Shown here piece after piece: positions 19,297 to 44,304 of a stretch of DNA of 44,304 nucleotides. Source of the stretch: an uncultured Candidatus Marinamargulisbacteria bacterium (GTDB lineage Bacteria > Margulisbacteria > Marinamargulisbacteria > SXXA01 > CAYGHZ01); NCBI GenBank assembly GCA_964349635.1, contig CAYGHZ010000001.1:1-44304 (forward strand). Reading direction: 5' to 3'. The notes under the pieces are model-generated. The model did no database searches. It was not told where the DNA came from and was given only the letters and a program-made list of their open reading frames with translations. The translations under genes were made by a program, and so were the position numbers. The first letter of the stretch is position 1; the number at the start of each line of letters is the position of its first letter.

Positions 19297-19867
19297 GCTC
19301 GTAAAGTTTATCTACAGCTTCTCCTAAACTTAAATTCCTCGCCAGATGTATTTGACGCAGGGAATTTAGCAGAAATCCGTAATAGCAGACACTTAATCCA
19401 AAAACAAGCCACACGGGTAGGGGAACATTGCAAAATGATCCCGGCTTCAACCAATACAAGCCGATGGCAATTTCTGTTGTCATCAGCACCAAATGGGTAA
19501 GGGACCAGTTGAAATCCATCGAGTCCAGGAATGGCCTATATAGCCGATTCTTCATTAGTGCGGAAGAATAGCCATGCCAGTTCCCATCAAAAAGATTCCA
19601 AATTATTACATTAATTAGGTTAGTAACCGTCTTGTGAGTAGCATAAATAATAAGGCCCAATATGGCCCCAATAGCGGCAATTTGGAAAATAATGAGCTTG
19701 GTAAAATTTGCTTTAACCCAGAAATCGATAAGGCAGTCCAATTTGGGAATTTGACCTTCTCCAATCAGATGATAAAGGCCTAGAAAAATATACCCGGGTA
19801 ACAAAAGGCGCATGAATTTTCCCGTATCCTCAAATAATTTTGAAATTCCTTCGGCAAAACCCTTCAT
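19271..19867 (-). CDS. hypothetical multi-pass membrane protein
   Basis: 198-aa ORF with several hydrophobic segments, heading the minus-strand array. No family recognised. Confidence 0.45.
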   Translation of the reverse strand: MKGFAEGISKLFEDTGKFMRLLLPGYIFLGLYHLIGEGQIPKLDCLIDFWVKANFTKLIIFQIAAIGAILGLIIYATHKTVTNLINVIIWNLFDGNWHGYSSALMKNRLYRPFLDSMDFNWSLTHLVLMTTEIAIGLYWLKPGSFCNVPLPVWLVFGLSVCYYGFLLNSLRQIHLARNLSLGEAVDKLYELGVKKKDD

Positions 19868-25401: not shown

Positions 25402-26514
25402 TTTAGGCCGATATACGACGGAAATTCCCGGCCAGCGATCATCCAACGTTTTGGTGCGCTCGGGGCCCAACCCGTCAGCTCCATCAGCGACCCGATCGAA
25501 TTCTTCCTGAAGATGCGCCCCCATGTCTTCTGCGCCAACAAACCCGGACACGCCAAACCCCTTGAATTTTGGCACCCCTTCTCCATCCTTCATCTCAACG
25601 TCGGCTACGACGGCCCATTCTCCCGCCCAAGCGCCCTTTGGCGCCAACTCTTCATAATTTGAATGATTCTCAAAATAGACGATATCCCCCACTTCCAGCT
25701 GAGATTCCAGACCTATGTCCCTCCCCACTTTCAGCTCGCGAACAAAGTGCCTGTAAAAAGCCCCTTGCACAAAATCCCCATTTATTATTGAAAAAGTGGT
25801 GGTAAGCGCTACCTGTAGTCGACTCCTGGTCCCGTCCAAATATTTTGCGTCGAAATCGAGCCTTCCCAAAGTCAACGCTTCTGCGGCAAATGAAATCACC
25901 TGGGTGGCAGTTGCGCAATCAAAACAATTTTCATTTTTGCGTTTTGCAAGATACCGTTTAAAAATCTCTGTCGCAACGTCGAATGACGACTTTTTTTCTG
26001 AAGGCACAAATGCAACCGTTTGTTTTTCTCTCCCTACCGGTCGATTGGCGGGCACATAAGATTCTCCCCGCACTTTAACCATTTCCCCTTCGTATTCCTT
26101 CGCCTCGCCACTGGTCAATTTTTCCCAGGCCTTTGGATCCTCTACCCAGCCGTCGGTAAGGCCGATGCTGTCAGACTCATCTTCGTTATAGTCTCCTACC
26201 AAATCGATCAAGCCGGCATAGGCCCTAGTCACACACGAATAGATGAGCCTCCTTGAAAAGGCGTCTTTTTGTTTGGAATCCAAAAGTTCAAACATTTCAT
26301 TAAGGCGTAATGAATCTGTATAAAGATCAACGCGATGAAGCAGCCGCGTCAACAGGCCTTCGGCCATTTTTTTCACTTCGTATTTTGGCAGAAGTCTGTC
26401 CCCGCTATATTTCTTTAGCTTCGCGCTGCTCTGATCGAGAATATCAGAAAAGCTTCGCGTGTCTTCCGAAATGTTTAGACTTTGCGCTGGCGTGGAAATT
26501 ACTTTCTTTACCAT
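25384..26514 (-). CDS. Tgl-type (Bacillus spore-coat-like) transglutaminase homologue, paralogue 1
   Basis: CFDCATATQVISFAAEALTLGRLDFDAKY resembles the Tgl YAFECATAIVIIYYLALIDTIGEDKFNASF as I recall it (catalytic Cys). VGDIVYFEN...WAGEWAVV resembles LGDCLYFKN...WRGENVIL. Confidence 0.45.
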   Translation of the reverse strand: MVKKVISTPAQSLNISEDTRSFSDILDQSSAKLKKYSGDRLLPKYEVKKMAEGLLTRLLHRVDLYTDSLRLNEMFELLDSKQKDAFSRRLIYSCVTRAYAGLIDLVGDYNEDESDSIGLTDGWVEDPKAWEKLTSGEAKEYEGEMVKVRGESYVPANRPVGREKQTVAFVPSEKKSSFDVATEIFKRYLAKRKNENCFDCATATQVISFAAEALTLGRLDFDAKYLDGTRSRLQVALTTTFSIINGDFVQGAFYRHFVRELKVGRDIGLESQLEVGDIVYFENHSNYEELAPKGAWAGEWAVVADVEMKDGEGVPKFKGFGVSGFVGAEDMGAHLQEEFDRVADGADGLGPERTKTLDDRWPGISVVYRPKLLVDV

Positions 26515-26656: not shown

Positions 26657-27451
26657 ATGTCGCTTTTCAAAGTTGTTCCCTTGCCACCATCTCGATTTCC
26701 TTTAGCTGTTTCGCGTCAATCGCTTGCCGCAGAAATGGGAAAGGCTCTTTTGGAAATAAAAGCGCATTCGAGGTTTAATGATGAGGGCGATGATTCGCTT
26801 AAATTACCTAGAAAATATTGGGAACCTATACCGTGTTACCATTACGAGGATGGTCGCCCAAGGAAATATACGGATGGCGCGTTCCGAGTCATAGGCGAAA
26901 AATCGCCGTCGAAGGCGCTGGCTAGTCTGGTGTCCTCCAAAGCAAACAATCGCTTGGAATGCGGGTCGACCGTTCTCGCTTCGATTTATTTGGGGCTCGT
27001 TCGTTTGTTAGGCCCTGAAGGCTTTGATCACATTTTTTCCAGACGCCTGGTCGCGATTGCGCCGCTAAACGTGAGCCTGACGAGAGTCGGATGCAAAGAA
27101 TTTACATGCGATCATCCCTTTTTCAGGCTGTTAACCCAAAGCACCGGAGAGACAAAAGTTGAACGCATCCAAGCGGGTGATATTGTTTATTTTAGAAACT
27201 ACGATAGGTACGAAGAACTCTGTCCCGACGGCGCCTTTGCCGGGGAATGGACGATATGTGTAAGGCACCAGCCCATACCGGTCTTCAATTGTTTCGGCAT
27301 CGAAGGAGATTTAGACGCGAATTCCGTAAAGGATGTTTTGAGGGAAAAGTACAAACACGATACCGGGCAACGCAAAACACCAGGGGGCCGACCCACTATT
27401 GATGAGGTCTTTCGGCCGGACTTGTCGAAACTTGGTATAGAATTAACTTAA
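26657..27451 (+). CDS. Tgl-type transglutaminase homologue, paralogue 2
   Basis: Shares LECGSTVLASIYLGLVRLLGPEGFDHIF and AGDIVYFRNYDRYEELCPDGAFAGEWTI with paralogue 1. It is transcribed divergently from a 142-bp intergenic region. Confidence 0.45.
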   Translation: MSLFKVVPLPPSRFPLAVSRQSLAAEMGKALLEIKAHSRFNDEGDDSLKLPRKYWEPIPCYHYEDGRPRKYTDGAFRVIGEKSPSKALASLVSSKANNRLECGSTVLASIYLGLVRLLGPEGFDHIFSRRLVAIAPLNVSLTRVGCKEFTCDHPFFRLLTQSTGETKVERIQAGDIVYFRNYDRYEELCPDGAFAGEWTICVRHQPIPVFNCFGIEGDLDANSVKDVLREKYKHDTGQRKTPGGRPTIDEVFRPDLSKLGIELT

Positions 27452-31240: not shown

Positions 31241-31600
31241 ATGCCTGCCATTCTTGTGGTCGATGACGAAGAAATTATTCTTCAGAGTTTTATTCGCATC
31301 CTGGAAAAAGAAGACTTAACTCTATTTACCGCCCAGGATAAAAAAGGGGCCCTTGAAAAGCTGGAAAATCCCATTTCTTTGTTTATTTGCGATGTGCGGA
31401 TGCCCGATGTCGATGGCCTCGAACTGATCAAAAACGCCAAAGAAAAAAATCCTCTTTTAAAGACCATTCTTTTAACCGGATTCGAAGACGCGACAATTCG
31501 AGAAGCCGCCGAGAAATTACATGTCGACCTATTGTTGACCAAACCCATTCGCGATATCGGGGGGTTTGTTCAAGCTATTCACCGTTTACTTAACTCCTAG
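31241..31600 (+). CDS. stand-alone response-regulator receiver domain (CheY-like)
   Basis: Contains the VVDDEE acidic pocket, the phospho-acceptor context FICDVRMPDVDG and LLTKP Lys. It is 119 aa with no output domain. It starts 2 nt after the upstream stop. Confidence 0.85.
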   Translation: MPAILVVDDEEIILQSFIRILEKEDLTLFTAQDKKGALEKLENPISLFICDVRMPDVDGLELIKNAKEKNPLLKTILLTGFEDATIREAAEKLHVDLLLTKPIRDIGGFVQAIHRLLNS

Positions 31601-31604
31601 TCCC

Positions 31605-32471
31605 ATGCGCCTCGTTTGGTTACCGGCGCTTTTACTCTTTGCTGCTTTGCCTGCATTTGGCGTCACATCAAACGTCACGGCAAAATTAGGCGCCATTTCC
31701 GGCAATAGCCGCTATCAGATTGGCGAGAAGTCGCCCGTCAGCGAACTAGTTTTCCCTTTGAACACGCTTCTTTTCCAGGCTGAAGGCGGGATCTCCTGGG
31801 AAAACGTGGTGTTTTTTCGGGTTGGCTTGGGAAAAAATATCAGCTCCTACAGCGGAAAAATGACCGATTCAGACTGGGACTCTTCGGGAAACCTGGAGAC
31901 CTACTCCGAAAGCGACTCCGATCTAAATCTTTTTACAGCCGACGCCCATTTCTTGGTGAACTGTATCGAAACGCCGGTCAATGGCCTGCGCGTGGGATTG
32001 GGCTATTATTATCAAAATTTTGATTTTACTATCAGCAACACCCGACAAACCTACCCCTCCAGCAACAAACCGCCGGAATACATTCCTGACAAAACGCTTT
32101 TATACTCCATCGTTTATCATATTCCCGTTTTTGAGATAGTGGGATATTCACATTGGCAAGCCATTCGATCTTCGCTTGCCATTGGATATTCTCCGTTTGT
32201 GACCAGCCAAGACAGCGACAACCACATTTTACGCTCCCGAGTTGGCGACGGGAACCAGCGAGGCCAGGTCTGGATTATTGACTCCCAGCTTCATTACCAG
32301 GCCACCCCTCAATTATCCTTCTCGATTGACGCGCATTATCTCAAGACGGTTGGTTTTGGGCGCCAGGTTCAAACAGAATACGGGTCTTCGCCCCGCACCC
32401 TCGGAATAATCGACCAAACGGTTGCCAGTGACCAATATTCGGTTCTATTTGGTTTAAGGCACATGTTCTAA
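31605..32471 (+). CDS. omptin-like (peptidase A26-like) outer-membrane beta-barrel protease
   Basis: Signal peptide MRLVWLPALLLFAALPAFG. MTDSDWDSSGN resembles OmpT MVDQDWMDSSN (Asp83/Asp85). SQDSDNH resembles OmpT SSDNDEH (Asp210/His212). The C-terminal GLRHMF resembles OmpT GLKYTF. I chose the start at 31605 to avoid overlapping the receiver gene. Confidence 0.55.
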   Translation: MRLVWLPALLLFAALPAFGVTSNVTAKLGAISGNSRYQIGEKSPVSELVFPLNTLLFQAEGGISWENVVFFRVGLGKNISSYSGKMTDSDWDSSGNLETYSESDSDLNLFTADAHFLVNCIETPVNGLRVGLGYYYQNFDFTISNTRQTYPSSNKPPEYIPDKTLLYSIVYHIPVFEIVGYSHWQAIRSSLAIGYSPFVTSQDSDNHILRSRVGDGNQRGQVWIIDSQLHYQATPQLSFSIDAHYLKTVGFGRQVQTEYGSSPRTLGIIDQTVASDQYSVLFGLRHMF

Positions 32472-32517: not shown

Positions 32518-33129
32518 ATGAACAAGAATAAACACATCAGTTTAACTTTGATCCTGATAATGCTGGCGGTAGCCCCGTTTTTTTCTCCAATCCAGGCTGG
32601 CCTGCAGTTCACGTCTCTTTCGCTCAACACCATCCTTCACTTTGGGTCCGGCTTTATCAATAACTTTAAAGATTTTGGCGGCCGGGACACGCGAGGCACC
32701 TTTACCAATAACCAGAAAGGCCTATCTATCTTAGGAGTTAGCTTTCAAAGCGTCGGCCAGACGATGGATGATCTCTCGCAGGGGAACATGTCATTAGCTA
32801 TGGCTATTAACGATGACGATTCGGAAGCCAAAGTCGATAAAGAACCCCTTGTTTACCCTAATCCGTTTCGCCAGGAGCAGGGAGCCCAGTTGGGTTACTC
32901 TCTCAACAAAAACATGGACCTCGAGATTCACATCTATAACATGCTCGCACAGAGAATCACCCAAAAGATTTTCTATAAGGGAGTCAACGGCGGCCACCAG
33001 GGATACAACAAGGTCGACTTCAATTTGGGCACTTGGGACGGATACGTCTTATCGGCGGGGGTTTATTTTTACGTACTGATGAATAACGGCAAGGTTTTGG
33101 CGAAGGGGAAGATGGCGGTAATCCCATGA
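32518..33129 (+). CDS. small secreted protein with T9SS-CTD / FlgD-Ig-like C-terminal domain
   Basis: Has an N-terminal signal/anchor. The C-terminal ~90 aa begin with the hallmark VYPNPF, followed by L.I.IYN..., SAGVYFYVL and K.AVIP, as in type-A sorting / FlgD-Ig domains. Confidence 0.5.
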   Translation: MNKNKHISLTLILIMLAVAPFFSPIQAGLQFTSLSLNTILHFGSGFINNFKDFGGRDTRGTFTNNQKGLSILGVSFQSVGQTMDDLSQGNMSLAMAINDDDSEAKVDKEPLVYPNPFRQEQGAQLGYSLNKNMDLEIHIYNMLAQRITQKIFYKGVNGGHQGYNKVDFNLGTWDGYVLSAGVYFYVLMNNGKVLAKGKMAVIP

Positions 33130-34058
33130 AACGACACATTTTAGCGATTTTACTTTTGCTCGGTTTATTGAGCCAGCCTGCCCAGGCTGGCGGAGACTTT
33201 TTTATGGTGTCCGACGTTGGCTCTTCAGCGCGAATGATTCGCATGGGGAATATCGAAGGATTTTCCGAATTTGCCAATGGCGTTTTTGAAAACCCCGCTT
33301 CACTCTATCGAACCAAGCGATTTTCCGCCTCTGTTTTCACGACAACGTTTATGAACGAAGTCCAATACAAAAACCTTTCGGTAAGCACGAAACTGCCGTT
33401 TGGGACCCTTGGGCTTGGCTATATGACCGCCGGGGTGGGCGCCATCCCTCGCACCTATGAATCGGTCGCAACTACCCCTGGCGAAGAGTCAACATTTGAT
33501 GTCGGCGGATATTTTGATTATAACAATACTATGGCTAAGGTCTCGTATGAGCTGTCCCAAACCGAAAATCTCCATTTTGGCACTTCCTTGACCTACTATG
33601 CCTCCACCATCGATACGCATTCCGGTCGAGGCTTTAACTTTGATGCCGGGATTGTGGCTGTCGCCCGACCTCTGACCCTTTCCGTGGTCGCCAAGAACGT
33701 CGTGCCCTCGCTCAAGGTTAATTATTCGAACGGACAGTCTGAAACCTTGCCGCTGCAAACCAGCTATAGCGCCCTGTATCATATCGGTAATTTTGATTTG
33801 CTGGGTCAGCTTCGGGCTATTGGCAATAACCAAAAATTCATGAAATCGTTTGCCGTTAACTATTCCCCTCATTTTGTTCCGTTCTTCCATATTTCCGGTG
33901 GCTATAAGGAATTTCCGGTGATACGGGATATTAAGAGCAACTATGTTTTGGGACTAGGATTAGATGTTTTCGATGTTAGCTTCGATTACGCCTACGAACG
34001 TAGCGAGCATATCGAATACAACAATAAGCACTACTTTTCCGTTGCGTTTTCGTACTAA
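33126..34058 (+). CDS. outer-membrane beta-barrel, PorV/PorQ/FadL-like
   Basis: Signal peptide ending AQAGG. SSARMIRMGN....A.GVFENPASL matches the (A/S)R..(G)MG...A......NPA.L N-terminal signature of PorV/PorQ/FadL-type barrels. It shows an alternating beta pattern and an aromatic C-terminus (VAFSY). The ATGA overlaps the upstream gene. Confidence 0.5.
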   Translation: MKRHILAILLLLGLLSQPAQAGGDFFMVSDVGSSARMIRMGNIEGFSEFANGVFENPASLYRTKRFSASVFTTTFMNEVQYKNLSVSTKLPFGTLGLGYMTAGVGAIPRTYESVATTPGEESTFDVGGYFDYNNTMAKVSYELSQTENLHFGTSLTYYASTIDTHSGRGFNFDAGIVAVARPLTLSVVAKNVVPSLKVNYSNGQSETLPLQTSYSALYHIGNFDLLGQLRAIGNNQKFMKSFAVNYSPHFVPFFHISGGYKEFPVIRDIKSNYVLGLGLDVFDVSFDYAYERSEHIEYNNKHYFSVAFSY

Positions 34059-34074
34059 CATAGGGAAAACCTGA

Positions 34075-34140
34075 ATGAAATGGGGACTAACTTTAGTTTT
34101 ATTGGCATCGCTTAGTTTCGCTTCCGCGACCCTGGCGGCC
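34075..34140 (+). other. signal peptide of the giant protein
   Basis: MKWGLTLVLLASLSFASATLAA followed by EKP: a positive N-terminus, hydrophobic core and A-x-A-like cleavage context. Confidence 0.7.
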
Positions 34141-37100
34141 GAAAAACCCGTTACCATCACCTTTCAAGCCACTCTTTACTCCCCGATCATCGGACTTTTA
34201 GAAGGCAGCCATATGGTGACCGCCGGCATTTATTCGGGCAAAAAGCCCCCGGCGATTTGGAGGGAGGGCCGGCGATCCGTTTCGTTTAAGAAGGGGGCAT
34301 TTAGCCTCATTCTTGGCGCGCAGGATCCTACGAACAACGCACTTTTACCCGCACATTTTGATATCGCCTCGCCCACGCTGGGCCTTATTATTTACGATCA
34401 GCTTTTTTTCTTTCCGATAACGTCTATTCCTTATGCCATTAAGAGTATCGTCGCTGAAGAGGCCTTGCAGGCGCCTGCGGAGGGAATTTCAGGCGATTTT
34501 ACCTCGCGCGTCGCCATTAATGCGCCTTTGTTCGTCGACCAAAAGACATTTTACGTCGACCCGCTGAAAAACCGGGTTGGCATCGGAACAACCCAGCCCA
34601 TGGCCGAATTGGATGTCATCGGCAAAATTGATTCTAAGGGCTTACTGGTTAATGGCAAAAGTTTCATCGACACCGTCGCCTGGCAGCCTAATAAGTCCGT
34701 CGTGAAAACGATTCACACAAAGACTAGCGTTGGCATCGGCACGACTCGACCGATCTTTGGATTGCATGCCACCGGCACGATTAATGCAATGGCCTATACG
34801 ATCAACGGGCAACGAATAGACGGAATTCTCGACTGGCAACATCCGGCCGTCGTCTCCGATCTTTATTTTCGCAAAGGGGGAAATATCGGCATTGGCAGTG
34901 CGGACCCCCGCTCCAAGTTGGACGTTCGAGGCTCATTGCGGGTCGGGGAAAGCGCCGATACCGTTAGCGGCAATATTCGATGGAACCCCATCACATCGAA
35001 AATTGAAGGGTTCAATAATACTCAATGGCTTCCTCTGACCGGTATCGTCGGACAGGGCGTGGCCAATAGTCCGGTGTTTTGGACAAGTTCTCAAGAATTC
35101 GGTAATAGCGCCTCATTTTTCTGGGACAGCGCTAAAAGCTATTTGGGCCTCGGGACCAAAACGCCTCGCGCTTGGTTGACTATTCAATCGGACGGGGCAG
35201 CGCCGTCGTTTATCGCTTCCGCCAACCAGAATTTGGTTTTTGTGGGCGCCAATAACAACATCGGGATCGGCACCAGCACTCCCAACCAGAAATTAAGGGT
35301 TCGCGGACTTTTAGATAGTGACGAGTTAACCATTGGCGGCCTTAATCTGAGGCTTGCTTTATCCACCGGAACATTTTGGCTTCGAAACCCCAAAGATAAT
35401 AGCTTGTTTTATACGCTAGGGAACGTCGGCATTGGCCGGCCTGATCCAGGCAGCTTATTGGAATTATCCGGTCGCAACGTCGCCGCCGGAGGTAAATCAC
35501 AAAACCCCGCCATGACCTTCTCGTCCTCATCCGCCAGTTTCACGATGGGAGCGGATTTGGCCGATAGCGGCGTCTTTAGAATCGAAGCCGGAAAAGTGCT
35601 TGGCGTCAGTACGCCTTTATTTATCGCTCTCGAGGATCGATTGGCTATCGGAATCCGCCATCCGCAGGCGAACTTGCATGTCAGCGGAAACGCCGGAGTC
35701 GTTTTAGCCGGAAAATTTTTTGGCTCGCCCGAATCGTTTGGAATTCAGCAGGCGCTGGATAAAAGAGAACCGGGTGTGGTCATTATTACGAAGAATATTC
35801 CCGCGGAAGGTCCCGGCACACGAATGCTTTGGTTTGCCAAGCGCGCCGCCTTTCGAGCCGGCCACTTGGACACCCTGGGCCTGTCGGGCGGCAAAGAATG
35901 GAACGAAGACAATTTAGGAAAGTTTTCGGTTGGTTTTGGCCATAATACGCGTCCGGGAGGAGCTGTCTCCGCTGTTTCGGGGGGCCAATCCAATACGGCG
36001 GATGGCGCGTATGCCACCGTTTTGGGCGGGTCTGGCAATAGCGCTGCGGGCGATTTTAGCGTCGCCGGCGGCCAACGCGCCAAGGCGCTTCATGCCGGTA
36101 GCTTTGTCTGGGCGGATTCTCAAAGCCGAGACCTTGTCTCCCATCACGAAAATCAGTTTCTTATTCGCGCCCAAGGCGGGGTTGCGATAGGAACCACCCA
36201 GACTCTTTTTAACGATCAGCGCGTCGCGTTGACTGTGGCTGGCAAGGCGGTGCTTGGGAATGCATTTGTTTCCTCACCCCAACAGATTAACGAAGCCCTT
36301 TCCGCCGAACTTCGAAACGACCTTCGCAGACACAATTATATTAACGATGACGGCAGTTTTACCTCGCAATTCTCTTCGCTGAATCCCCTTCAGGTAGACC
36401 CGACTCACAATGCCTACGCTTTCTTTATGAGGACCGTTTTGACCACAATTTATGACTCATCGATCATCAAAGCCGGGATTGTGGTTAAGAACACCGGGAA
36501 GGTCGCGATAGGCGCCGCCGATCCCGGGAAAAGCCGGCTCTTAGTCTCCGGCGGAGCGGTTCATATTGGATTGCCGACCGCGACCTCAAACGGAAATGTT
36601 GTGGTGCGTTCCTCTGCCGATCTTCCCAATATCTTTATGGCGCACGGCGTTAAGGACAATGCCAAAAATCCCGCGATGGCGGTGGTGGATCTGGGGCACA
36701 CCGGATTTGGCCTGTTTCCGACTATTTTTACCGCCATTCAAAAGCCCGGGCTTCAAGTCGGCAGCGGAAATATCGCCGCAACGGCCTATAAACTGCCGGA
36801 CAACACCTCGCTGGGCGTGGTTCCGATTGAGCCGTGGGAAATTGTATTGGCCACCCCTAATGTCTATTTCCCGACGGGCAACATCGAACATATGCGAACT
36901 CATCCCGGAAACGTGGGTATTGGCACCACATTGCCCAAATCCGCTTTCGAGATTTCCAACATCGGCAGCGTCCAGTTTGACACCCCCAAAAACGCGGCCA
37001 TGTCGATTCAGTCATTTACAATGGGCATCAATCATTTGTTACCTGATGTTTTCCGAGTCGAAAAGAATTTGACTCTGGATAGCGCAAGTCCTCTATTGAC

Positions 37101-40100
37101 ATTAAAAAATGCAACTATTGGGATGGGAATCCTTAACCCGCAAGCGCAATTGCATGTAGGCGCCACCGCCCTTTTTAATGGCACGGTGCGCTTCACCCCA
37201 ACGCCAATTCCCAATGCGCCGGTGGTTCCCCCGTTTGGATTCAGCCCCGCCCCGGCCGACACCTCCTATATCGCTACGGCGCCCACGGTCAATGTCACGA
37301 CACTTTTTGTAAACCATGAATTGTTTGAAGCGTCCGGAAGTAAATGGAATGTATTAAGCAATAACGACATCTTCAAACCGGCCATTGGAAGCTTCGTGGG
37401 GATCGGCACCACTCAACCTCAAACCATGCTGGCCGTTATCGGAACGATCAACGCTACCAAACTCGTGGTCGCCAAAAATCTGAAAGTAACCAATGTCCTC
37501 CGCTTAGGGCAGCTTAATTTTCGGGACGGTGGCGATCTAGCCAGTCTCGTTGTTAAGAACGGGAAATTGGTTCAGCAGGACACGATTTTTGTTTCCGATA
37601 CGTTGTCTGCCGGATCCGGCTCCGGAGGCAAGATTGCCTTTTGGGTTGAAGATCCGACCGTGGCGTCTCTTTCTCTGTTGGCTGAGACCCATTTTGTTTG
37701 GACCAGTCCGACCCCCTCCAAAGCCGGAACGCTTAGTCTGACTGGCAATTTTGCCGTATCCAACACGCGCACGGCGGCTTCTAGCTTTAGCGTCAAAAAT
37801 GACTCGATCCTCGGGACGGCCAACGCCAATTCGGCCTATACCATTACCTCAGGGATTGGGCACAACGGTTTTTATAACCTCCATTCCCGCGACTTCTCAA
37901 ACTCCAAAATTACGATCGGCATTGATTCGTGGCTCGGTTCTCCGGCGACTTCCGAGATTACGGGCGCTAAGGTAGTCGTGGCTAACCGACCGGGCGTGCT
38001 CCTGACGCAAAACGGCTCGGCCCGAGGTCTCACGATTGACGTTTCTAAAGTCAATGTTCAGGCCGCCGGTGATCGCGGATTCAAATATGCCGCATTATTT
38101 AACGGAAACGTCGGTATTAATACCTTTCCGGTTCCGGATCCCCTTTCGCAATATATCTTGGACGTGAAGGGAACCGTCGTTGCAACGCAATTCAACATCA
38201 CAAAGCGTCTTTCGGTTAGTACGATCAATGTTCAAACCAATGTGTTGCGAGTGACCGATGCGGGCAAGGTCGGCATCGCTACACAAACTCCCAAAACCGC
38301 CATTGAAATTATCGGAACTGTTCTGGCCAAGCAATTCAAGGTCAAAGGAGCCGACATTACGAATCTCGATATACGTCAAGGCAGCTTGGTCGTCAACACG
38401 CAGCAACCTAATAGCGTCGGCATGGGCACATCGGCGCCCGGCGCTCAGCTGGAGATTCGAAGAGATTTCTCGAGCACTCCGGCCTCTGACTATTCGGCGC
38501 AAGTTATTAGTGCGAATGCCCAAAGTATCACGCACAACATCACCGCCGTGGATCTCGATATTCAATCTGCGGATTTTAGAAATATATTAGGCAAGCCGGG
38601 CGAACCCCATATCGCGACCGGGATCAATATCAACCTGTCGGGAACGGCAGCCACCGAAAATGCGGTCATTACCGGCTTCAAGGCGATCATGAACCCCGCC
38701 GACGTTACACGCAATGCCGCCGCGATCTTGTTGGGCGGCAATGTCGGCGTCAACATTTCGGAACCGACAGTTTTATTAGATATTTTGGGCACAATCCGCG
38801 CCAATAACGTGGTTCAAACCAACTTATTAACCAAGCAGAAACGCGCTTCCTTTGGCCGCCTGGATTTGACCACACCTAACGTTAGCATCACCGGCGACAC
38901 GTTGATCGCGAAAGATATTCGGGTTTCTACCTTTAATGCGCTTGCGTCAGATGGCGCTACTCAAAGCAAGCTGATTGTTAATCAAAAACTCAATTTGCCA
39001 GGGATTCTTCTCAACGTTGCCGGAACGTGGCTGGGAAAAACCATTTCGGTCAACCAAACTGTAACGGCAAAGCAGGCTCAATATCATGACAATGCAATCG
39101 CCGTTCGGGGCCATTTTGACGGCGTCGGCCTTGGTCAAAGCGCACCTACGAAAGGCCTTGTCGTGTCCAACACGTTAACTGCCAAGCGTATGGTTGTTAG
39201 AAACAGCCTCAACTCGCGGTCGATTCAGTTCCATACCACCGGAGTGATTTCCGATTTGAACGGAAACATCGGCATTAATACGTCGGTAGCCAGCAACCGT
39301 CTTCATATCAATCCTGTTCTTTCAAGCAACCCTGCATTCAATAGCGCCGACAATACCACGTGGCAAGCCCTTAGGGTTCATTCCACAACCTCCACGATTA
39401 ACGGCATAGTTTTTGTGCCCGAATCGGGCACAGCGACAGACACCGGCGCCGGCATTGCCGCGCTACGAACGGTTAGGGGCTCTCATTTGGCAATTATTAC
39501 GGACCCAGATAACGGATTGCCCGTCGAACAGGTTCGGATTACGAATGCCGGTAACGTCGGCATCGGAACCACGGCGCCGGACCGGTTGTTGAAGGTCGCC
39601 GGTACAGCGCGATTTGAAAACGATTTGACTCTCTCGTCGCCCGCACAACTCAATGCCTCGGTTATTCAGGGCCGTAGCGGATCGGGCATTACCATACCTA
39701 ATCTGCTCGCGATCACCGCCACCGCAAACGTCTCCGCCAATGTCATTACGGATAAATTTATTTCGATTCGCACCCTGACAAAACCGGGTAGTGTGGTAGA
39801 CGCGGGCGCCTTATTTGACAACGGCGGCCTGTTTTACCAATTTACGACATCGGGAAATTTGACTCAGTTTTTGTCCAATAAGACAGGGACCATCCCTTTC
39901 TTTAACGACAAGCAAAAACTGACCGACACGTCGGCGCTATCCTGGACCGCAAGTTCCGGAATCTTTCGGGTGGGTACCGCCAATATGAAATTAAGAAACA
40001 AACCCTTGGTTGACGTGGTTAATACCATCCCGTCCAAGAATCTTATTGCGACGCCGTTTACCGCCCATTCCATTCGACTGTCCTTTTTGGATCGCCCAAT

Positions 40101-43100
40101 CGACGCCAGCTCGCAATTCGGCAAAACACTATTTGCAGGTCTAAATATCAATTTACCCAAACAGTATATCCCTCTCACCGAAACGGCCCGGGGATTGGCT
40201 ATTAGTGTTGTAAGCCTAAATGCGGTGAGCAGCACGCCGTTACCTTCCGAAGAAGATTTCTCAATCGAAGGGCGAAAATTTGCCGCTTCGTTTGTGGGTG
40301 GCGCCGTTGCCATTATCGCCTCGCCTAACGTTGCGTTGCGGCCCAGCGCCGATCTCATGGTGGTTGGTTATGGCTCGCATATGGACGCCCTTAGAATCGG
40401 CGACGGGCTTGCTGTTGATCCGTCGGGCAGAGTGGGAATTGGAACCACGCTACCTACCGCAAAAACAACGATTAAAGGCAACGGAATTGTACTGCAAGCC
40501 CAAGATAGCCTAGGCATCGAATTGATGAAGATTCGGGATAACGGCTATGTCGGCTTCGGCGTCTCCCGGAATGTGGCCCAAATGACCGAAATAGCGGGAA
40601 CGGTCAGCGCCAACGTCATGAAAGCAGGTCGCCTCATAGGTTCGATTTTGAGCGCCGGAGGCTCGAAGTTAGTCGTTCTGGCCAATAAGAACGTGGGGAT
40701 CGGAACAAGCACCCCGGCGGCTCAATTTGAAAATCAGCAAATTATTTCAAGCCCGACTGACCCCCGAACCATGCTTGAAAAAATTGAGCAACGCCTTGGC
40801 ACAACTATCATCGCCAATCTCACCGGCCTTTCGATTGTGGTAACCAGCAATTCGCTTAGCAATACGTTTGGGCTGGTTGGAACCCCTAAGACTGCCCTTG
40901 GACTGAATATCGCCGCTACTCAGCTTCAATTGCATCCTAGCGCCAATGCCGTTGGCCTGCGCGTCACCGTTCCAAATATCGCCGTTAGCCGAAACGCCGC
41001 TATTTTACTGGGTGGAAACGTCGGGATCGGGACTACCACCCCCACGGCTAGTTTGGCGATTGTAGGCACGCTGCGCGTGTCAGGGCCGACATTTTTCACG
41101 TCTAGTTCGGCATTCAGTACCACGCAGATTGCGTCGTTTAACCGGATGGTAGTCACAGCTGGTGCGCCAAATATAAATACCGCTACTTTCAAAGGCCTGG
41201 TCACCGTCACCAAAAACATGACCTTCGCCAATAGTGTTTCTTTATTTAAGAAACTTACCGGACGAGTTTCCGCCGGCGGCATCGTTGCCGGTCGCGGTCA
41301 AATCGCCAACGTCGCCGTTGCCACGGTCAACCGCACGGCTACCCGATTCAACATGGTTGGCAAGGCTAAATTTACCGGCTTGCTGGTAAAAAATACACTC
41401 TTCTCCAACACCATTACGGCCAACGCCGGCATTACAGTCACTTCGCCCATGATCATCGACGGAGCGGCCACGGTCACCCACAATGCTTTCACGAATTTCC
41501 TTTCGTTAAACTCGATCGCCAATCCCGCCCAGAATGTGTCGGAATATTTGTTTACCTATTCAAATCAACTTCGCTACCGTTCCGGCGGAGTAACTGCCAA
41601 TCTTAGCGCAAGCGCCTCGGGCGTGCCCGGCCAGTTGCCCTTTTATGACCAATCAAAATCCGTTAGCGGCAACACTTTCTTAAACTGGGCCATTAATAAT
41701 CAGTCCCTGGTATCCACGCTAAATGTCCGATTGATGGCTCTTAAATCTACGATTGGCTCAGCCGTTTCCGGCGTCCATGACGCGCAACGCCTAGTCCTTA
41801 AGTTCCTGGATCGACCGCAAAATACCGGCGTTGTTAATCAAGGGGATTACCTGTTCGCGGGCCTTCATGTTATGTCGACCGGCAACACCACCGTCACCCT
41901 CAACGAAACGATGACCGGACTGCGGGTGAGCGTGGCGTCTCTTAATGCGCAAAGCTCGACCATATTGCCCCCTGATGAGGGCGGCTCGATCATTTCCGGC
42001 CAAAAATATGCCGCGACGTTTTTAGGCGGCGGCCTGAGCATTGCTACCAAACCAACCAAAGGCGTGGTTACGGGCAATGCCTCGCTCTATGTCAATCACG
42101 GATTCACCTCGAACCCTGCGTTTCGGATTGATTCACCGACGTCTAACCTGTTTGCCGTCTACCCCGGATTCGTGGGTATCGGCTCTACAACCTATGGCGG
42201 CCGATTAACGGTGACCTCGAATCTAGAAGTGCTATCCGGCGGATTAAGTCGATTTAAAGTCACCCCCGCAGGTCAAATCGGAATCGGAACGTCGGAGCCT
42301 GGCGCGAATCTCCATCTCGTCGGCTCGTTTAAAGTTACGTCTAACGCTGTGACCCGAATGATGATCAATTCCGTGGGACAGATCGCGTTTAATCGCGCAA
42401 CGTCGGACGCTTCCCTTCGAGTAAGTGGCGACGCACAACTAGGCAATGGATTGTGGTTATCATCCGGCAAGGCCAGTATTGGTCGTATCGCAAGCACTTA
42501 TTATCCGTTAGCGGTTTCCGGCAACATCGTTTCCGGGCAACAAATTTTCCCAACAAATCGAATTCTGGCCTGGTCGACCTCGGCCAATATCGTTGAACGG
42601 GCCGGCAATGAAGTGATGCGCATCACAGACCAAAAATCTCTTGCAATAGGCACTAAATTACCCAGCGCAAGCCTTCACGTCTTTGCCGCGGCGCCAAAAA
42701 ATATTTTCCATCTCAGCAAATCCGCCTCACCCAATATTATGGTTATCACCAACACGGGGCTTATCGGACTTGGTACTCACCTTCCCTCCGCCAACCTTCA
42801 TATTCTTGGCAAGTTAAAGGCTAATCGGATCATTGACCGGCCGACACTACTGATCGCGCCTAATATTATTGTGACCAACAACAAGACTGGCGCGAATAAC
42901 TTTAAGATCGCCAATCAAGTCACCTCCGGCGAAGCGGCGACTGGCTTTGCGTCCTCGATTGCCTTATCCAGTGACAGCGATAAATCGTTGATGGGTCTTT
43001 CCATAAAACTAAAATCCACCGTGACACAGAACAACCCGCGAGTTGTCGGCCTTCGGGTTAACAACGCTCTCTTCTCCGAAGACGCCAATCTCGCCACCGA

Positions 43101-44304
43101 TGACGGCGTGAAATATTCCGGCATCTTTATGGGTGGCAATGTCGGGATTGGCACAGATACCCCGGCGTACCCTCTCGATGTTAAATCCACGAACTTGAAT
43201 GGCATCGCATTAAATATGGGTGCCATTGCCGCGCTGATTAGCTCCAACAACGTTTCACCCGGCGGCGCGATCCAACGAGGATCAATGTTAATTGTCTCGG
43301 GCAATGGAACAGCTCTCAAGGTCGAAACCATTCCGACCGAAGCCTTCAAAACAATCGCCTACGAAAGCTCGGGTGCCCCGCAAGGGTATTATCAGGTCGA
43401 TGACACTAAAGCCTCGACACTAATGACCCAATTGAAATCCGGCGGCATTATTAACTCGTCTTACCAATTGATTCCCGCCAGCCTTACCGCTCTTAAAACA
43501 GCCTTGGGAGCCTATGGAAACTACGTCGACGGCAACTTTGTTTCGACGCAAAACGTTTTCCGGGCGTTGGCGCCTTACCTTCAAAAAAGCTTTATTTCCC
43601 TCACGCCGACGGGTAACGGTGCAGTTCTTGGTCAATTAGGCACGATAACTCGCAATACAATCGTGATCAGCACTGGCACCGGACCGCTTTTGCCCGAAAT
43701 CAACGCCGGCGCGGCGGTGGGAAGCAAGGTCAAAAATGCCTTTGCCTTTACCGGACGGGTCGGCATCAATATGAGAAAAGCCGATACCATTCAAAATGTT
43801 TTAGACAAGACCTTGGTGGTCAACGGCGATATGAAAGTCGGCATTACGCAGGAAGGCTTCGTTCAGGATCAAACCCGGTTATATTTCTCGGGTGGCCCGA
43901 CAATCGCCCCCGTGGTCAACTCGGACAACACCAACCCGATGTTTATTGCGCGCCACAACGACAACGTAAATGTCACCAGCTTGCAAATCAGCGTCGGAAC
44001 CGATGCCCAAAGCCCCACCAAGCCGGACGCCAAATTCCGGGTGGGTTATACGCAAAACAATGCGTTTAACAGCGTCTTTGACGTTCGCGTCAGCACGATC
44101 AGCCAGTTCCCCGACCACATCAACACCGGCCTGCTTGACCCTGCCAGCCTTTCCAACGACCCCGCCGGATTTGTCGGCGTGGGCACCAGCAATGCCAAAG
44201 CGACGCTGCATGTCGTAGCCGACAAAAGCTATTTGGACCCTACTGGTACCGGGGCCAACCTTATCAATACCTTTGTAACCAATAATGTCTCCATCATCCA
44301 AAAT
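34075..44304 (+). CDS. giant secreted repetitive fibre/adhesin-like protein, 5' part only (3,410 codons visible; continues beyond the window)
   Basis: I hand-translated every codon from the ATG at 34075 to 44304 and found no in-frame stop. The window ends on a codon boundary (..NNVSIIQN). All track ORFs in this span are short, and the plus-strand ones all lie in a different frame. It has a signal peptide, recurrent protein motifs and a coherent amino-acid composition. Confidence 0.9.
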   Translation, partial: MKWGLTLVLLASLSFASATLAAEKPVTITFQATLYSPIIGLLEGSHMVTAGIYSGKKPPAIWREGRRSVSFKKGAFSLILGAQDPTNNALLPAHFDIASPTLGLIIYDQLFFFPITSIPYAIKSIVAEEALQAPAEGISGDFTSRVAINAPLFVDQKTFYVDPLKNRVGIGTTQPMAELDVIGKIDSKGLLVNGKSFIDTVAWQPNKSVVKTIHTKTSVGIGTTRPIFGLHATGTINAMAYTINGQRIDGILDWQHPAVVSDLYFRKGGNIGIGSADPRSKLDVRGSLRVGESADTVSGNIRWNPITSKIEGFNNTQWLPLTGIVGQGVANSPVFWTSSQEFGNSASFFWDSAKSYLGLGTKTPRAWLTIQSDGAAPSFIASANQNLVFVGANNNIGIGTSTPNQKLRVRGLLDSDELTIGGLNLRLALSTGTFWLRNPKDNSLFYTLGNVGIGRPDPGSLLELSGRNVAAGGKSQNPAMTFSSSSASFTMGADLADSGVFRIEAGKVLGVSTPLFIALEDRLAIGIRHPQANLHVSGNAGVVLAGKFFGSPESFGIQQALDKREPGVVIITKNIPAEGPGTRMLWFAKRAAFRAGHLDTLGLSGGKEWNEDNLGKFSVGFGHNTRPGGAVSAVSGGQSNTADGAYATVLGGSGNSAAGDFSVAGGQRAKALHAGSFVWADSQSRDLVSHHENQFLIRAQGGVAIGTTQTLFNDQRVALTVAGKAVLGNAFVSSPQQINEALSAELRNDLRRHNYINDDGSFTSQFSSLNPLQVDPTHNAYAFFMRTVLTTIYDSSIIKAGIVVKNTGKVAIGAADPGKSRLLVSGGAVHIGLPTATSNGNVVVRSSADLPNIFMAHGVKDNAKNPAMAVVDLGHTGFGLFPTIFTAIQKPGLQVGSGNIAATAYKLPDNTSLGVVPIEPWEIVLATPNVYFPTGNIEHMRTHPGNVGIGTTLPKSAFEISNIGSVQFDTPKNAAMSIQSFTMGINHLLPDVFRVEKNLTLDSASPLLTLKNATIGMGILNPQAQLHVGATALFNGTVRFTPTPIPNAPVVPPFGFSPAPADTSYIATAPTVNVTTLFVNHELFEASGSKWNVLSNNDIFKPAIGSFVGIGTTQPQTMLAVIGTINATKLVVAKNLKVTNVLRLGQLNFRDGGDLASLVVKNGKLVQQDTIFVSDTLSAGSGSGGKIAFWVEDPTVASLSLLAETHFVWTSPTPSKAGTLSLTGNFAVSNTRTAASSFSVKNDSILGTANANSAYTITSGIGHNGFYNLHSRDFSNSKITIGIDSWLGSPATSEITGAKVVVANRPGVLLTQNGSARGLTIDVSKVNVQAAGDRGFKYAALFNGNVGINTFPVPDPLSQYILDVKGTVVATQFNITKRLSVSTINVQTNVLRVTDAGKVGIATQTPKTAIEIIGTVLAKQFKVKGADITNLDIRQGSLVVNTQQPNSVGMGTSAPGAQLEIRRDFSSTPASDYSAQVISANAQSITHNITAVDLDIQSADFRNILGKPGEPHIATGININLSGTAATENAVITGFKAIMNPADVTRNAAAILLGGNVGVNISEPTVLLDILGTIRANNVVQTNLLTKQKRASFGRLDLTTPNVSITGDTLIAKDIRVSTFNALASDGATQSKLIVNQKLNLPGILLNVAGTWLGKTISVNQTVTAKQAQYHDNAIAVRGHFDGVGLGQSAPTKGLVVSNTLTAKRMVVRNSLNSRSIQFHTTGVISDLNGNIGINTSVASNRLHINPVLSSNPAFNSADNTTWQALRVHSTTSTINGIVFVPESGTATDTGAGIAALRTVRGSHLAIITDPDNGLPVEQVRITNAGNVGIGTTAPDRLLKVAGTARFENDLTLSSPAQLNASVIQGRSGSGITIPNLLAITATANVSANVITDKFISIRTLTKPGSVVDAGALFDNGGLFYQFTTSGNLTQFLSNKTGTIPFFNDKQKLTDTSALSWTASSGIFRVGTANMKLRNKPLVDVVNTIPSKNLIATPFTAHSIRLSFLDRPIDASSQFGKTLFAGLNINLPKQYIPLTETARGLAISVVSLNAVSSTPLPSEEDFSIEGRKFAASFVGGAVAIIASPNVALRPSADLMVVGYGSHMDALRIGDGLAVDPSGRVGIGTTLPTAKTTIKGNGIVLQAQDSLGIELMKIRDNGYVGFGVSRNVAQMTEIAGTVSANVMKAGRLIGSILSAGGSKLVVLANKNVGIGTSTPAAQFENQQIISSPTDPRTMLEKIEQRLGTTIIANLTGLSIVVTSNSLSNTFGLVGTPKTALGLNIAATQLQLHPSANAVGLRVTVPNIAVSRNAAILLGGNVGIGTTTPTASLAIVGTLRVSGPTFFTSSSAFSTTQIASFNRMVVTAGAPNINTATFKGLVTVTKNMTFANSVSLFKKLTGRVSAGGIVAGRGQIANVAVATVNRTATRFNMVGKAKFTGLLVKNTLFSNTITANAGITVTSPMIIDGAATVTHNAFTNFLSLNSIANPAQNVSEYLFTYSNQLRYRSGGVTANLSASASGVPGQLPFYDQSKSVSGNTFLNWAINNQSLVSTLNVRLMALKSTIGSAVSGVHDAQRLVLKFLDRPQNTGVVNQGDYLFAGLHVMSTGNTTVTLNETMTGLRVSVASLNAQSSTILPPDEGGSIISGQKYAATFLGGGLSIATKPTKGVVTGNASLYVNHGFTSNPAFRIDSPTSNLFAVYPGFVGIGSTTYGGRLTVTSNLEVLSGGLSRFKVTPAGQIGIGTSEPGANLHLVGSFKVTSNAVTRMMINSVGQIAFNRATSDASLRVSGDAQLGNGLWLSSGKASIGRIASTYYPLAVSGNIVSGQQIFPTNRILAWSTSANIVERAGNEVMRITDQKSLAIGTKLPSASLHVFAAAPKNIFHLSKSASPNIMVITNTGLIGLGTHLPSANLHILGKLKANRIIDRPTLLIAPNIIVTNNKTGANNFKIANQVTSGEAATGFASSIALSSDSDKSLMGLSIKLKSTVTQNNPRVVGLRVNNALFSEDANLATDDGVKYSGIFMGGNVGIGTDTPAYPLDVKSTNLNGIALNMGAIAALISSNNVSPGGAIQRGSMLIVSGNGTALKVETIPTEAFKTIAYESSGAPQGYYQVDDTKASTLMTQLKSGGIINSSYQLIPASLTALKTALGAYGNYVDGNFVSTQNVFRALAPYLQKSFISLTPTGNGAVLGQLGTITRNTIVISTGTGPLLPEINAGAAVGSKVKNAFAFTGRVGINMRKADTIQNVLDKTLVVNGDMKVGITQEGFVQDQTRLYFSGGPTIAPVVNSDNTNPMFIARHNDNVNVTSLQISVGTDAQSPTKPDAKFRVGYTQNNAFNSVFDVRVSTISQFPDHINTGLLDPASLSNDPAGFVGVGTSNAKATLHVVADKSYLDPTGTGANLINTFVTNNVSIIQN
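34570..44220 (+). repeat. about 30 dispersed protein-level copies of the motif G-N-V-G-I-G-T-x-x-P-x-x-x-L-x-V-x-G
   Basis: Strict GN[VI]G[IV][GN] copies start at 34879, 35419, 36907, 38104, 38737, 39262, 39550, 41014 and 43135. Looser copies include NRVGIGTTQPMAELDVIG at 34570, QIGIGTSEPGANLHLVG at 42274 and FVGVGTSNAKATLHVVA at 44170. Codons differ between copies, so there is no long DNA-level repeat. Confidence 0.8.
35815..36195 (+). other. YadA-head / Hep_Hag-like repeat segment within the giant protein
   Basis: GTRMLWFAKRAAFRAG...WNEDNLGKFSVGFGHNT..GGAVSAVSGGQSNTADGAYATVLGGSGNSAAGDFSVAGGQRAKALHAGSFVWADS...NQFLIRAQGGVAIGT. The short G-x-x-N-x-A-x-G repeats and the FVW.DS...NQF.IRA.GGV ending are typical of trimeric-adhesin-head / tail-fibre-like proteins. 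Confidence 0.5.

Follow-up and report, generated by a model that had tools for sequence, protein, structure and literature searches.

A published capping-loop motif recurs along a giant, putatively trimeric surface-fiber protein of Margulisiibacteriota

What is a motif of the form GNVGIGT..P...L.V.G doing, in copy after copy, along one very long protein of an uncultured bacterium? The question is raised by a 44,304-bp stretch of DNA (hereafter the window), contig CAYGHZ010000001.1 of assembly GCA_964349635.1, assigned to an uncultured Candidatus Marinamargulisbacteria bacterium. A single open reading frame (ORF) on its plus strand, in frame 1, runs from an ATG at 34075 to the last base, 44304, and 3410 residues of the product are visible. 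An earlier note, made from the sequence alone, had drawn attention to the motif in this ORF. We find that the motif, judged by its sequence, is the published capping loop of trimeric beta-helix modules and is in itself not new, and that the ORF probably encodes the precursor of a giant cell-surface fiber of the kind seen in phage tails and in the MAT (mosaic adhesive trimer) fibers of Bdellovibrio bacteriovorus. This fiber would be secreted, anchored through its N-terminus, trimeric and adhesive; its trimeric state and its function we infer. The motif is widespread in tail-fiber-like proteins, and the novelty lies in its carrier, a giant family with a fixed, colinear architecture of ~3,500 residues. 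Also new are a probable chaperone of the gp12 type, rather than S74, in the orthologs, and a conserved pair of partner genes that offers a concrete candidate for anchoring.

The motif, its copies and their age

The strict expression [VIA]G[IVLMF]G[TS] occurs 16 times in the protein, against 0.44 in 500 shuffles, and fuller patterns give 18-24 copies, against fewer than one. A profile of 29 positions draws on 22 copies, of which this protein supplied 13 and distant homologs nine. It reported 27 domains in the protein, 24 of them with a score of at least 0 (shuffle mean 0.09) and 21 with a score of at least 3 (shuffle mean 0.01; 100 shuffles); no copy was found in the other frames or genes of the window. 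The recurrence reported by the earlier note is therefore real, and far above what composition alone would yield (shuffles ~0), while its figure of about 30 copies is slightly generous: a profile supports 21-27, and 30 is fair if degenerate copies are included. The interval that it gave, 34570-44220, agrees with the first and last copies found here. The spacing, put at roughly 35-390 residues, is indeed irregular, with a wider range of 30-492 residues between profile-detected copies. The copies are as follows, with profile scores and the number of full-length orthologs, out of eight, that have a motif at the same place.

34567..34635, plus strand: motif copy 1, KNRVGIGTTQPMAELDVIGKIDS; score 33.4; 8/8 orthologs
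34729..34782, plus strand: motif copy 2, VGIGTTRPIFGLHATGTI; score 4.2, in-protein profile 30.1; 8/8 orthologs
34861..34947, plus strand: motif copy 3, GGNIGIGSADPRSKLDVRG; score 34.9; 7/8 orthologs
35146..35202, plus strand: motif copy 4, degenerate, GLGTKTPRAWLTIQS; score 4.1; 6/8 orthologs
35236..35319, plus strand: motif copy 5, NNNIGIGTSTPNQKLRVRG; score 35.1; 8/8 orthologs
35416..35472, plus strand: motif copy 6, LGNVGIGRPDPGSLLELSG; score 7.1; 8/8 orthologs
36892..36972, plus strand: motif copy 7, PGNVGIGTTLPKSAFEISN; score 32.9; 8/8 orthologs
37375..37458, plus strand: motif copy 8, GSFVGIGTTQPQTMLAVIG; score 32.8; 7/8 orthologs
38248..38328, plus strand: motif copy 9, AGKVGIATQTPKTAIEIIG; score 11.5; 6/8 orthologs
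38392..38478, plus strand: motif copy 10, PNSVGMGTSAPGAQLEIRR; score 30.6; 8/8 orthologs
38725..38805, plus strand: motif copy 11, GGNVGVNISEPTVLLDILG; score 5.4; 8/8 orthologs
39532..39615, plus strand: motif copy 12, AGNVGIGTTAPDRLLKVAG; score 36.3; within the stretch that matches PHROG tail-fiber families 9942 and 18345
40411..40491, plus strand: motif copy 13, SGRVGIGTTLPTAKTTIKG; score 31.2; 6/8 orthologs
40672..40755, plus strand: motif copy 14, NKNVGIGTSTPAAQFENQQ; score 33.1; 7/8 orthologs
41002..41079, plus strand: motif copy 15, GGNVGIGTTTPTASLAIVG; score 36.9; 8/8 orthologs
42163..42192, plus strand: motif copy 16, PGFVGIGSTT, without the proline; score 4.3, in-protein profile 29.7; 5/8 orthologs
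42253..42339, plus strand: motif copy 17, AGQIGIGTSEPGANLHLVG; score 34.5; 7/8 orthologs
42646..42681, plus strand: motif copy 18, degenerate, IGTKLPSASLHV; score 3.5; 6/8 orthologs
42739..42825, plus strand: motif copy 19, TGLIGLGTHLPSANLHILG; score 31.2; 7/8 orthologs
43123..43197, plus strand: motif copy 20, GGNVGIGTDTPAYPLDVKS; score 33.2; 8/8 orthologs
44158..44217, plus strand: motif copy 21, without the proline, AGFVGVGTSNAKATLHVV; score 6.2; final loop ahead of the predicted chaperone domain, which is missing at the C-terminus
35662-35694, 37117-37170, 38101-38118 (ggaaacgtcggtatt, an example given in the earlier note), 39124-39183 and 39253-39309, plus strand: five more copies, weak or partial; scored at -2.4 to 3.1 by the in-protein profile, individually not significant

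Comparison with known families and structures suggests what the motif is. Pfam and NCBIfam yielded nothing on the whole fiber protein; Pfam holds no model for the motif, and motif peptides gave only a chance-level match to T4 gp36. Motif-bearing stretches matched the PHROG tail-fiber families 9942 and 18345 (E 2e-15 and 7e-11), cyanophage tail-fiber proteins gave weak tblastn matches, and distant homologs of the fiber bear PF13884 and PF05658. A phmmer search of Protein Data Bank (PDB) sequences with the whole protein returned only noise and a weak match to UspA1. With the motif profile, every significant match in the PDB (E<=0.0035) was a MAT fiber of B. bacteriovorus, namely 8OND (Bd2133; E 1.8e-21, three copies), 8OJN, 8ONB and 8ONC (1.4e-9), 8OML, 8OL4 and 8ONF, and 8ON4; MyRF was a weak further match.

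In the study of those structures, the motif forms the capping loops, which close each trimeric beta-helix domain of Bd3182 and Bd2133 at its proximal and at its distal edge (Caulton 2024, PMC10769870). The published consensus is V-G-G/N-pi-x-x-P-x-x-x-L, and the same loop was noted in MyRF (PMC10769870). The loops listed in Supplementary Fig. 18, among them NVGIGATAPTAKLE, NVGIGTTTTTEKLN and LVGIGTATPAAPLH (PMC10769870), are the same motif as that in the window. In Bd2133, the first beta-helix domain (G683-E813) has loops 684-697 and 798-811 at its two ends, and in Bd3182 two loops bound a helix of 60 Å (PMC10769870). Because the loops bracket the helix domains of these two proteins, the motif of the window would likewise mark the edges of trimeric beta-helix modules. 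The suggestion of the earlier note that it marks the starts of repeated beta-structural units came close to this published role. Its remark that the motif is familiar from tail-fiber-like proteins and trimeric adhesins is borne out by the PHROG families, the MAT crystal structures and a UspA1-head-like stretch at residues 626-718.

The copies are old. When two copies share an amino acid, they use the same codon in 34% of cases, exactly the 34% expected from independent draws on the gene's own codon usage. Nucleotide identity among copies averages 49% and reaches 65% at most. Exact direct repeats of 14 nt or longer are absent from the 10.2-kb ORF, as are relevant tandem repeats. Each of the three DNA strings quoted in the earlier note was located exactly once, at 38104, 39550 and 43135. 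Moreover, 86% of the positions that carry a motif copy also carry one in eight full-length orthologs that are only 25-41% identical to the window protein; this figure is somewhat inflated by the tendency of the aligner to anchor on the motif, a bias that does not affect the colinearity seen by BLAST. Across the orthologs, identity to the window protein is 48% in motif columns versus 30% elsewhere. Within the motif, the most conserved positions are G (0.89), P (0.85), G (0.79), L (0.70) and V (0.68); the x positions vary freely (0.12-0.17). Given the codon randomization, the retained positions and the conserved columns, the copies are ancient, and each has been kept in its own right at the level of the peptide, as the note had proposed. 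The low recombination instability that it also mentioned is plausibly a by-product of the absence of DNA repeats, with no sign of selection for it.

Could the motif instead be an artifact of composition or low complexity, or have arisen recently by gene conversion or duplication? G, T, V, I and N abound in the protein, and two larger internal duplications were detected by blastp of 200-residue chunks against the whole protein:

38305-38871 (residues 1411-1599) and 40588-41157 (residues 2172-2361), plus strand: ancient internal duplication 1; 33% identity, E 5e-16
40078-40569 (residues 2002-2165) and 41797-42297 (residues 2575-2741), plus strand: ancient internal duplication 2; 38% identity, E 1.4e-18

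The duplicated blocks, however, are only 33-38% identical and retain no similarity at the DNA level. The shaft grew by duplication of blocks of ~160-190 residues or more, before the orthologs diverged. As the shuffles produce ~0 copies against 21-27, codon sharing is at the random level, DNA repeats are absent and the positions are kept in distant orthologs, both the compositional and the recent-duplication versions of this explanation were rejected; we consider it scarcely credible.

Base, shaft and missing end of the protein

The gene is complete at its 5' end only. The window is the entire contig, and the gene was therefore cut by assembly, not by biology. An exact 60-mer from the end of the window had no match in the genome and metagenome contig collections, a homolog search found no fragment identical to the last 411 residues, and Logan contigs of the source runs end at the window end or overhang it by ~118 nt. 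The principal features of the protein, in addition to the motif copies, are listed below.

34075..44304, plus strand: giant fiber gene with an intact 5' end, its 3' part cut off where the contig stops; predicted full length ~3,660 residues
34075..34137 (residues 1-21), plus strand: Sec-type signal peptide MKWGLTLVLLASLSFASATLA, followed by AEKP; by inspection of the translation
34138..34512 (residues 22-146), plus strand: N-terminal all-beta domain, the proposed cell-proximal anchor; from a profile family and an AlphaFold2 (AF2) model
35950..36228 (residues 626-718), plus strand: YadA/UspA1-head-like GGxxNxAxG beta-roll repeats, then NQFLIRAQGGVAIGT; from phmmer against the PDB
42952..44304 (residues 2960-3410), plus strand: distal region, colinear with the penultimate region of the orthologs

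On inspection, the fiber orthologs begin with a similar signal peptide. The N-terminal domain that follows is common to the two closest homologs in a word search (E 1e-11), and an exhaustive profile search recovered 424 cluster representatives (E<=1e-3), in all of which it follows the signal peptide directly, at about residues 25-160. Among the best 148 of these 424 representatives, 50 have at least 2,000 residues, 20 have 3,300-3,600, and the largest has 5,651. An AF2 model from 41 sequences is confident (pLDDT 87.7, pTM 0.71) and all-beta, with six strands. Foldseek found no PDB match to this model at E<=1e-3, only generic Ig-like or macroglobulin-like sandwiches with a TM score of at most 0.42. 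The N-terminal domain of the MAT fibers likewise has no fold neighbor in the PDB, and how those fibers are anchored was left open (Caulton 2024, PMC10769870).

The same domain was also seen on much shorter proteins (P0187, P0200, P0278, P0177 and P0226) that end in S74 chaperones and whose stalks consist of collagen triple-helix repeats, an antifreeze-like beta-roll or a chlorovirus-glycoprotein repeat. Since one domain heads S74-ended proteins with such varied stalks, it looks like an interchangeable, general base for chaperone-folded trimeric fibers of many kinds.

The giants form a conserved, unannotated Margulisiibacteriota family, typically of ~3,450-3,550 residues. Each bears 12-36 motif copies and carries the database label "hypothetical protein"; one ortholog (P0183) is labeled Candidatus Margulisbacteria. 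A preprint on giant genes reported that very large genes are frequent in Margulisbacteria and left those genes uncharacterized. The window protein is colinear over ~3,300 residues with a full-length ortholog of 3774 residues (P0170), at 41% identity over the first 730 residues and 32% over the next 2,577. A further giant ortholog (P0158) and an isoleucyl-tRNA synthetase (IleRS) 56% identical to that of the window (P0051) are both labeled "Thermoproteota archaeon"; each has a longest contig of 107,412 bp, and the two may share this contig, which looks like Margulisiibacteriota sequence mis-binned into an archaeal metagenome-assembled genome (MAG).

Within the shaft, the beta-roll segment at residues 626-718 matches the UspA1 head (3PR7, E 1.2e-5; 3NTN, E 0.006). 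In an AF2 monomer model of residues 2095-2400, the motif hairpins are the most confident parts (pLDDT 70-78).

What the missing end would look like can be read from the orthologs. The distal region matches four of them (P0170, P0183, P0178 and P0162) by blastp with E 1e-44 to 3e-25, with 246-276 residues of these proteins left over, and its last 371 residues have no sequence relative in the PDB. The orthologs continue for 246-300 residues beyond the last residue of the window, and so ~250 C-terminal residues are presumably missing from it. Motif copy 21 aligns with a ...G.VGI...LHVKG element that precedes the C-terminal domain of the orthologs, and the window stops at NNVSIIQN, which corresponds to the conserved NHLxVIEN at the start of that domain. 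In the orthologs the domain reads ...ADSLAI.H...NFITF...LGAIEGN...GADYAEYL.K...GDIVG...GKISK...GNWPG...FFGQV.VKV.G...GDYI.PSG..DGTGIAVSP...GRAWESS and is followed by a coiled coil. It is recognized by PF11962 (Peptidase_G2) with E 5e-8 to 7e-5, a match also precomputed on P0170. A profile of the ortholog C-termini matches the autochaperone of phi29 gp12 (3GQH, E 2e-4), as well as the chaperone domain D4 of a phage depolymerase. The 3GQH chain starts with DFAEYFE, whose D is the first residue of the released chaperone, and this aligns with DYAEYL of the orthologs. These resemblances point to an intramolecular chaperone of the gp12 type, not the S74 type, which for the window protein is predicted through its orthologs.

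Would an unseen C-terminus of another kind anchor a conventional adhesin, with the N-terminus as the distal end? Such a protein could be a type Vc autotransporter with a YadA-anchor barrel, or a SprB-like cargo of the type IX secretion system (T9SS). The UspA1/YadA-head-like stretch, the loss of the window's own C-terminus and the presence of T9SS-type genes directly upstream would suit this explanation. These genes are:

32518..33129, plus strand: partner 1, a secreted protein of 203 residues that ends in a T9SS type-A sorting domain (TIGR04183; score 30.4 bits, cut-off 23)
33126..34058, plus strand: partner 2, a PorV/PorQ-like outer-membrane beta-barrel of 310 residues (NF033709, E 9.9e-14; score 51.6 bits, under the cut-off at 90)

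However, the window protein is colinear to its last residue with orthologs that end in a G2-like chaperone and a coiled coil, and neither a YadA anchor nor Por_Secre_tail was detected in their last ~250 residues. No T9SS sorting domain (TIGR04183/PF18962) was found on the visible fiber or on the ortholog C-termini; the sorting domain belongs to the separate 203-residue protein, not to the fiber. In addition, the N-terminal domain is invariant in the 424 clusters while stalks and C-termini vary, a pattern that fits the N-terminus as the anchored end. The type Vc and T9SS-cargo alternatives were rejected on these grounds, and we regard a C-terminally anchored adhesin as improbable.

Assembly, length and relatives of the fiber

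The reading that we favor, an N-terminally anchored trimeric fiber, implies the following course of events. The signal peptide suggests that the chain would be exported by the Sec pathway. Three chains would then fold from the C-terminus under the gp12-type (Peptidase_G2) chaperone, which, to judge from the full-length orthologs, would cut itself off before the conserved D of GADYAEYL. The resulting shaft would be a string of intertwined trimeric beta-helix or beta-prism modules of unequal length, with a YadA-head-like beta-roll embedded in it. By homology to the structures of Bd3182, Bd2133, Bd1334 and Bd2439, each GNVGIGTxxPxxxLxVxG would form a capping loop and the strand that follows, closing the edge of a module. 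Such a role would account for the irregular spacing of the motif, for constraint only on G, G, P, L and V, and for its positional conservation among orthologs. The N-terminal beta-sandwich of ~125 residues would hold the fiber on the cell, and conserved synteny suggests that it possibly docks on a complex of the PorV/PorQ-like barrel and the sorting-domain protein. By analogy, the distal end, exposed when the chaperone is released, may bind a ligand on another cell or surface.

The length of the fiber can be estimated from solved MAT fragments, in which the rise is 0.28-0.44 Å per residue (60 Å for 135 residues, 142-150 Å for 370 and 95 Å for 334; PMC10769870). Applied to the 3,389 visible mature residues, this rise would give roughly 95-150 nm, and the mature fiber would measure roughly 100-150 nm. 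A fiber hundreds of nanometers long, as had been suggested earlier, is therefore probably about 2-fold too long.

Several observations weigh against the fiber reading or parts of it. The predicted C-terminal chaperone lies outside the window; in the orthologs, PF11962 (Peptidase_G2, autoproteolytic cleavage by an intramolecular chaperone) straddles its cut-off (22.8-33 bits against 25), and the match to 3GQH is weak. AF2 modeling of shaft residues 2095-2400, as a monomer only, was poor (pLDDT 53, pTM 0.20), and the trimer is predicted by homology. By phmmer against the PDB, no similarity to the solved MAT modules was detectable outside the motif. A fuzzy search with Bdellovibrio loop peptides recognized no Bdellovibrio protein among the best 148 N-domain representatives, and a scan of genome contigs for the N-domain with one peptide pattern gave no confirmed relative. 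Finally, the putative link between fiber and barrel is drawn from synteny, and the cassette of PorV/Q-like and sorting-domain genes is absent from the other giant, a paralog, of these loci.

The closest known system is that of the B. bacteriovorus MAT fibers (Bd3182, Bd2133, Bd1334, Bd2439 and Bd0884; PDB 8OND, 8OJN, 8OML, 8OL4 and 8ON4; PMC10769870). Like these, the window protein has a Sec signal peptide, after which comes a beta-rich domain of similar size (~125-130 residues) and possibly of common origin, a long shaft that bears their capping-loop motif (E 1.8e-21 for the profile against Bd2133), a C-terminus that would serve as a folding or binding device, and a chromosomal gene in a diderm bacterium. 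Unlike them, it has at least 3410 residues (predicted ~3,660) and 21-27 loops, whereas the numbering of the MAT constructs runs to ~920-1,150 residues. Its orthologs end in a putative G2-type chaperone and a coiled coil, not in S74 (SDxxxK) or NS74 lectin- or TNF-like tips, and their architecture is colinear and length-conserved, not tip-swapped. They also have conserved PorV/Q-like and sorting-domain partner genes, and, unlike Bdellovibrio, they belong to Margulisiibacteriota, a phylum with no known predatory lifestyle. Of the features by which a MAT is recognized, the signal peptide and the capping-loop motif are thus seen in the sequence and the N-terminal domain is plausible, while the orthologs do not appear to end in S74 or a described tip.

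Phage fibers and tailspikes with intramolecular chaperones are the second point of comparison. These include S74 proteins (K1F endosialidase, 3GW6; T5 pb1, 4UW8) and Peptidase_G2 proteins (phi29 gp12, 3GQ7/3GQH/3SUC; Klebsiella phage Dpo31). The window protein would share with tail fibers a trimeric beta-helix shaft folded from a C-terminal, autocleaving chaperone, and it shares the motif with PHROG 9942 and 18345. The resemblance to gp12 extends, in the ortholog C-terminal domain, to the DxAEY context of the cleavage site. Unlike phage fibers, however, it has a signal peptide, a proposed cell-anchoring N-domain instead of a virion-attachment domain and a cellular context, and it is 4-10 times longer. 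In MyRF, the ICA/S74 region (PDB 7DC3 and 5YHU) contains this loop once, as RVGINTDRPDEALV, before the S74 domain; unlike the window protein, MyRF is a membrane-bound transcription factor of eukaryotes, has only that copy and forms no fiber. The YadA/UspA1 autotransporter adhesins resemble the predicted protein as trimeric surface fibers and in the short GGxxNxAxG beta-roll segment. They differ in that the orthologs have no YadA-type anchor, the motif and the N-domain are not features of trimeric autotransporter adhesins, and the polarity would be opposite, with an N-terminal anchor. The fiber itself is most probably neither a virion fiber, a type Vc autotransporter nor a T9SS cargo, and would work like a MAT or a tail fiber.

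Adhesion is not the only use to which such a fiber could be put. The same trimeric fiber might be structural, as a spacer or coat of a fibrous surface layer, a sheath or a track protein for gliding motility. The nearly fixed length of ~3,450-3,550 residues across many lineages and the end-to-end colinearity suggest that structure constrains these proteins like a ruler, unlike MATs, which diversify by swapping tips, and two paralogous giants are kept per locus. On the other hand, the characterized relatives that have the motif together with a C-terminal chaperone (MATs, tail fibers and tailspikes) are all binding proteins, and we consider a purely structural role unlikely, if less so than a C-terminal anchor. 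The short motif can serve as a reliable marker for splitting very long fibers into modules for structure prediction.

The locus and its other genes

Is the gene cellular or viral? To our knowledge, the phylum Margulisiibacteriota has no cultured member. The IleRS encoded in the window is 56-60% identical to proteins of Candidatus Margulisiibacteriota MAGs, and the upstream genes with a Pfam family match are cellular: IleRS, MiaA, H+-PPase, CorC, an Opp transporter, an amine oxidase and an aminotransferase.

A tail-fiber gene of a phage, prophage or tailocin in the chromosome, with the motif belonging to a viral receptor-binding protein, would explain why PHROG tail-fiber families match and why cyanophage tail-fiber proteins share the motif. 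S74 and G2 chaperones are, moreover, classic phage devices, and related loci have a gene for a tyrosine recombinase between the two giants. Virion fibers, however, have no Sec signal peptide, and the ~3,500 residues of the giants far exceed phage fibers. Among the ORFs of the 34 kb upstream that were scanned against Pfam, several of which match no family at all, no phage family (capsid, tail, terminase or other) was found. A housekeeping-flanked order, SepF, YggS, MazG ... fiber ... NUDIX, Xer-like, M50, is kept in MAGs whose fibers are 25-41% identical, and the recombinase belongs to this conserved block and resembles chromosomal XerC/D. With the signal peptide, the cellular flanks and chromosomal synteny in four loci, a virion fiber was rejected and seems very improbable.

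The partner genes recur with the fiber. The pair precedes the fiber gene in four loci, at 32518-34058 in the window, 5750-7425 in L002, 6429-7984 in L004 and 270-1720 in L006. Orthologs of the 203-residue protein, 37-47% identical to it, occupy the equivalent place in L002, in L004/L005 (from a Margulisbacteria MAG) and in L006. Those of the barrel lie directly upstream of the fiber gene in three other loci, with 42-53% identity. In the window, L002 and L004, 16 nt separate the barrel stop from the fiber start. The pair could be a T9SS-derived anchoring module outside Bacteroidota.

Downstream of the fiber gene in L004-L006 are genes for a NUDIX protein, an Xer-like tyrosine recombinase and an M50-like membrane protein, then the second, paralogous giant (>3,200 residues). 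This giant occupies 18371-26374 in L004, 11975-19978 in L005, 13178-23099 in L006 and 1-6059 in L003; the best match of the first homolog search, P0001, is its ortholog (45% identity). The window contig probably continues in the same way past its end, with NUDIX and the following genes up to a second giant. In L002, a convergent, motif-rich partial ORF of 2,247 residues (12571-19314, minus strand) overlaps the called end of P0002 (1743 residues) by ~100 nt. It may be a third fiber gene, or an assembly or frameshift artifact that truncates P0002.

More speculatively, and as a possibility that we hold with little confidence, these loci would encode a surface apparatus that is widely conserved in Margulisiibacteriota, with two paralogous trimeric fibers of ~3,500 residues made from phage-type parts, namely beta-helix modules with capping loops and an autochaperone of the gp12 type. 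One of the two would be fixed to the outer membrane through a T9SS-derived pair, the PorV/PorQ-like barrel and, as its plug, the small sorting-domain adaptor. If so, attachment parts of T9SS would have been re-used outside T9SS, and a surface partner for the MAT-type N-terminal domain would be identified. Fibers of ~0.1 µm could then mediate cell-cell attachment, in episymbiosis or predation, of an uncultivated sister lineage of Cyanobacteria.

Some other genes of the window deserve mention. A Q/A/K-rich, apparently helical protein of 970 residues (3732-6644, minus strand) has no Pfam match, and its gene, with a GC content of 0.50 and an AT skew of -0.175, is unlike its neighbors. Two divergent ORFs (25384-26514, minus strand; 26657-27451, plus strand) gave weak matches, slightly under the cut-off, to TGL, a protein-glutamine gamma-glutamyltransferase (E 1.6e-4 and 7e-5). 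Just upstream of the fiber cassette, at 31566-32471, an omptin-family-like outer-membrane beta-barrel is predicted, with a Pfam E value of 4e-11 and scores far under the NCBIfam equivalog cut-offs. In the Logan copy of this region (L001), a response-regulator gene was called between the aminotransferase-GNAT gene and the omptin-like ORF.

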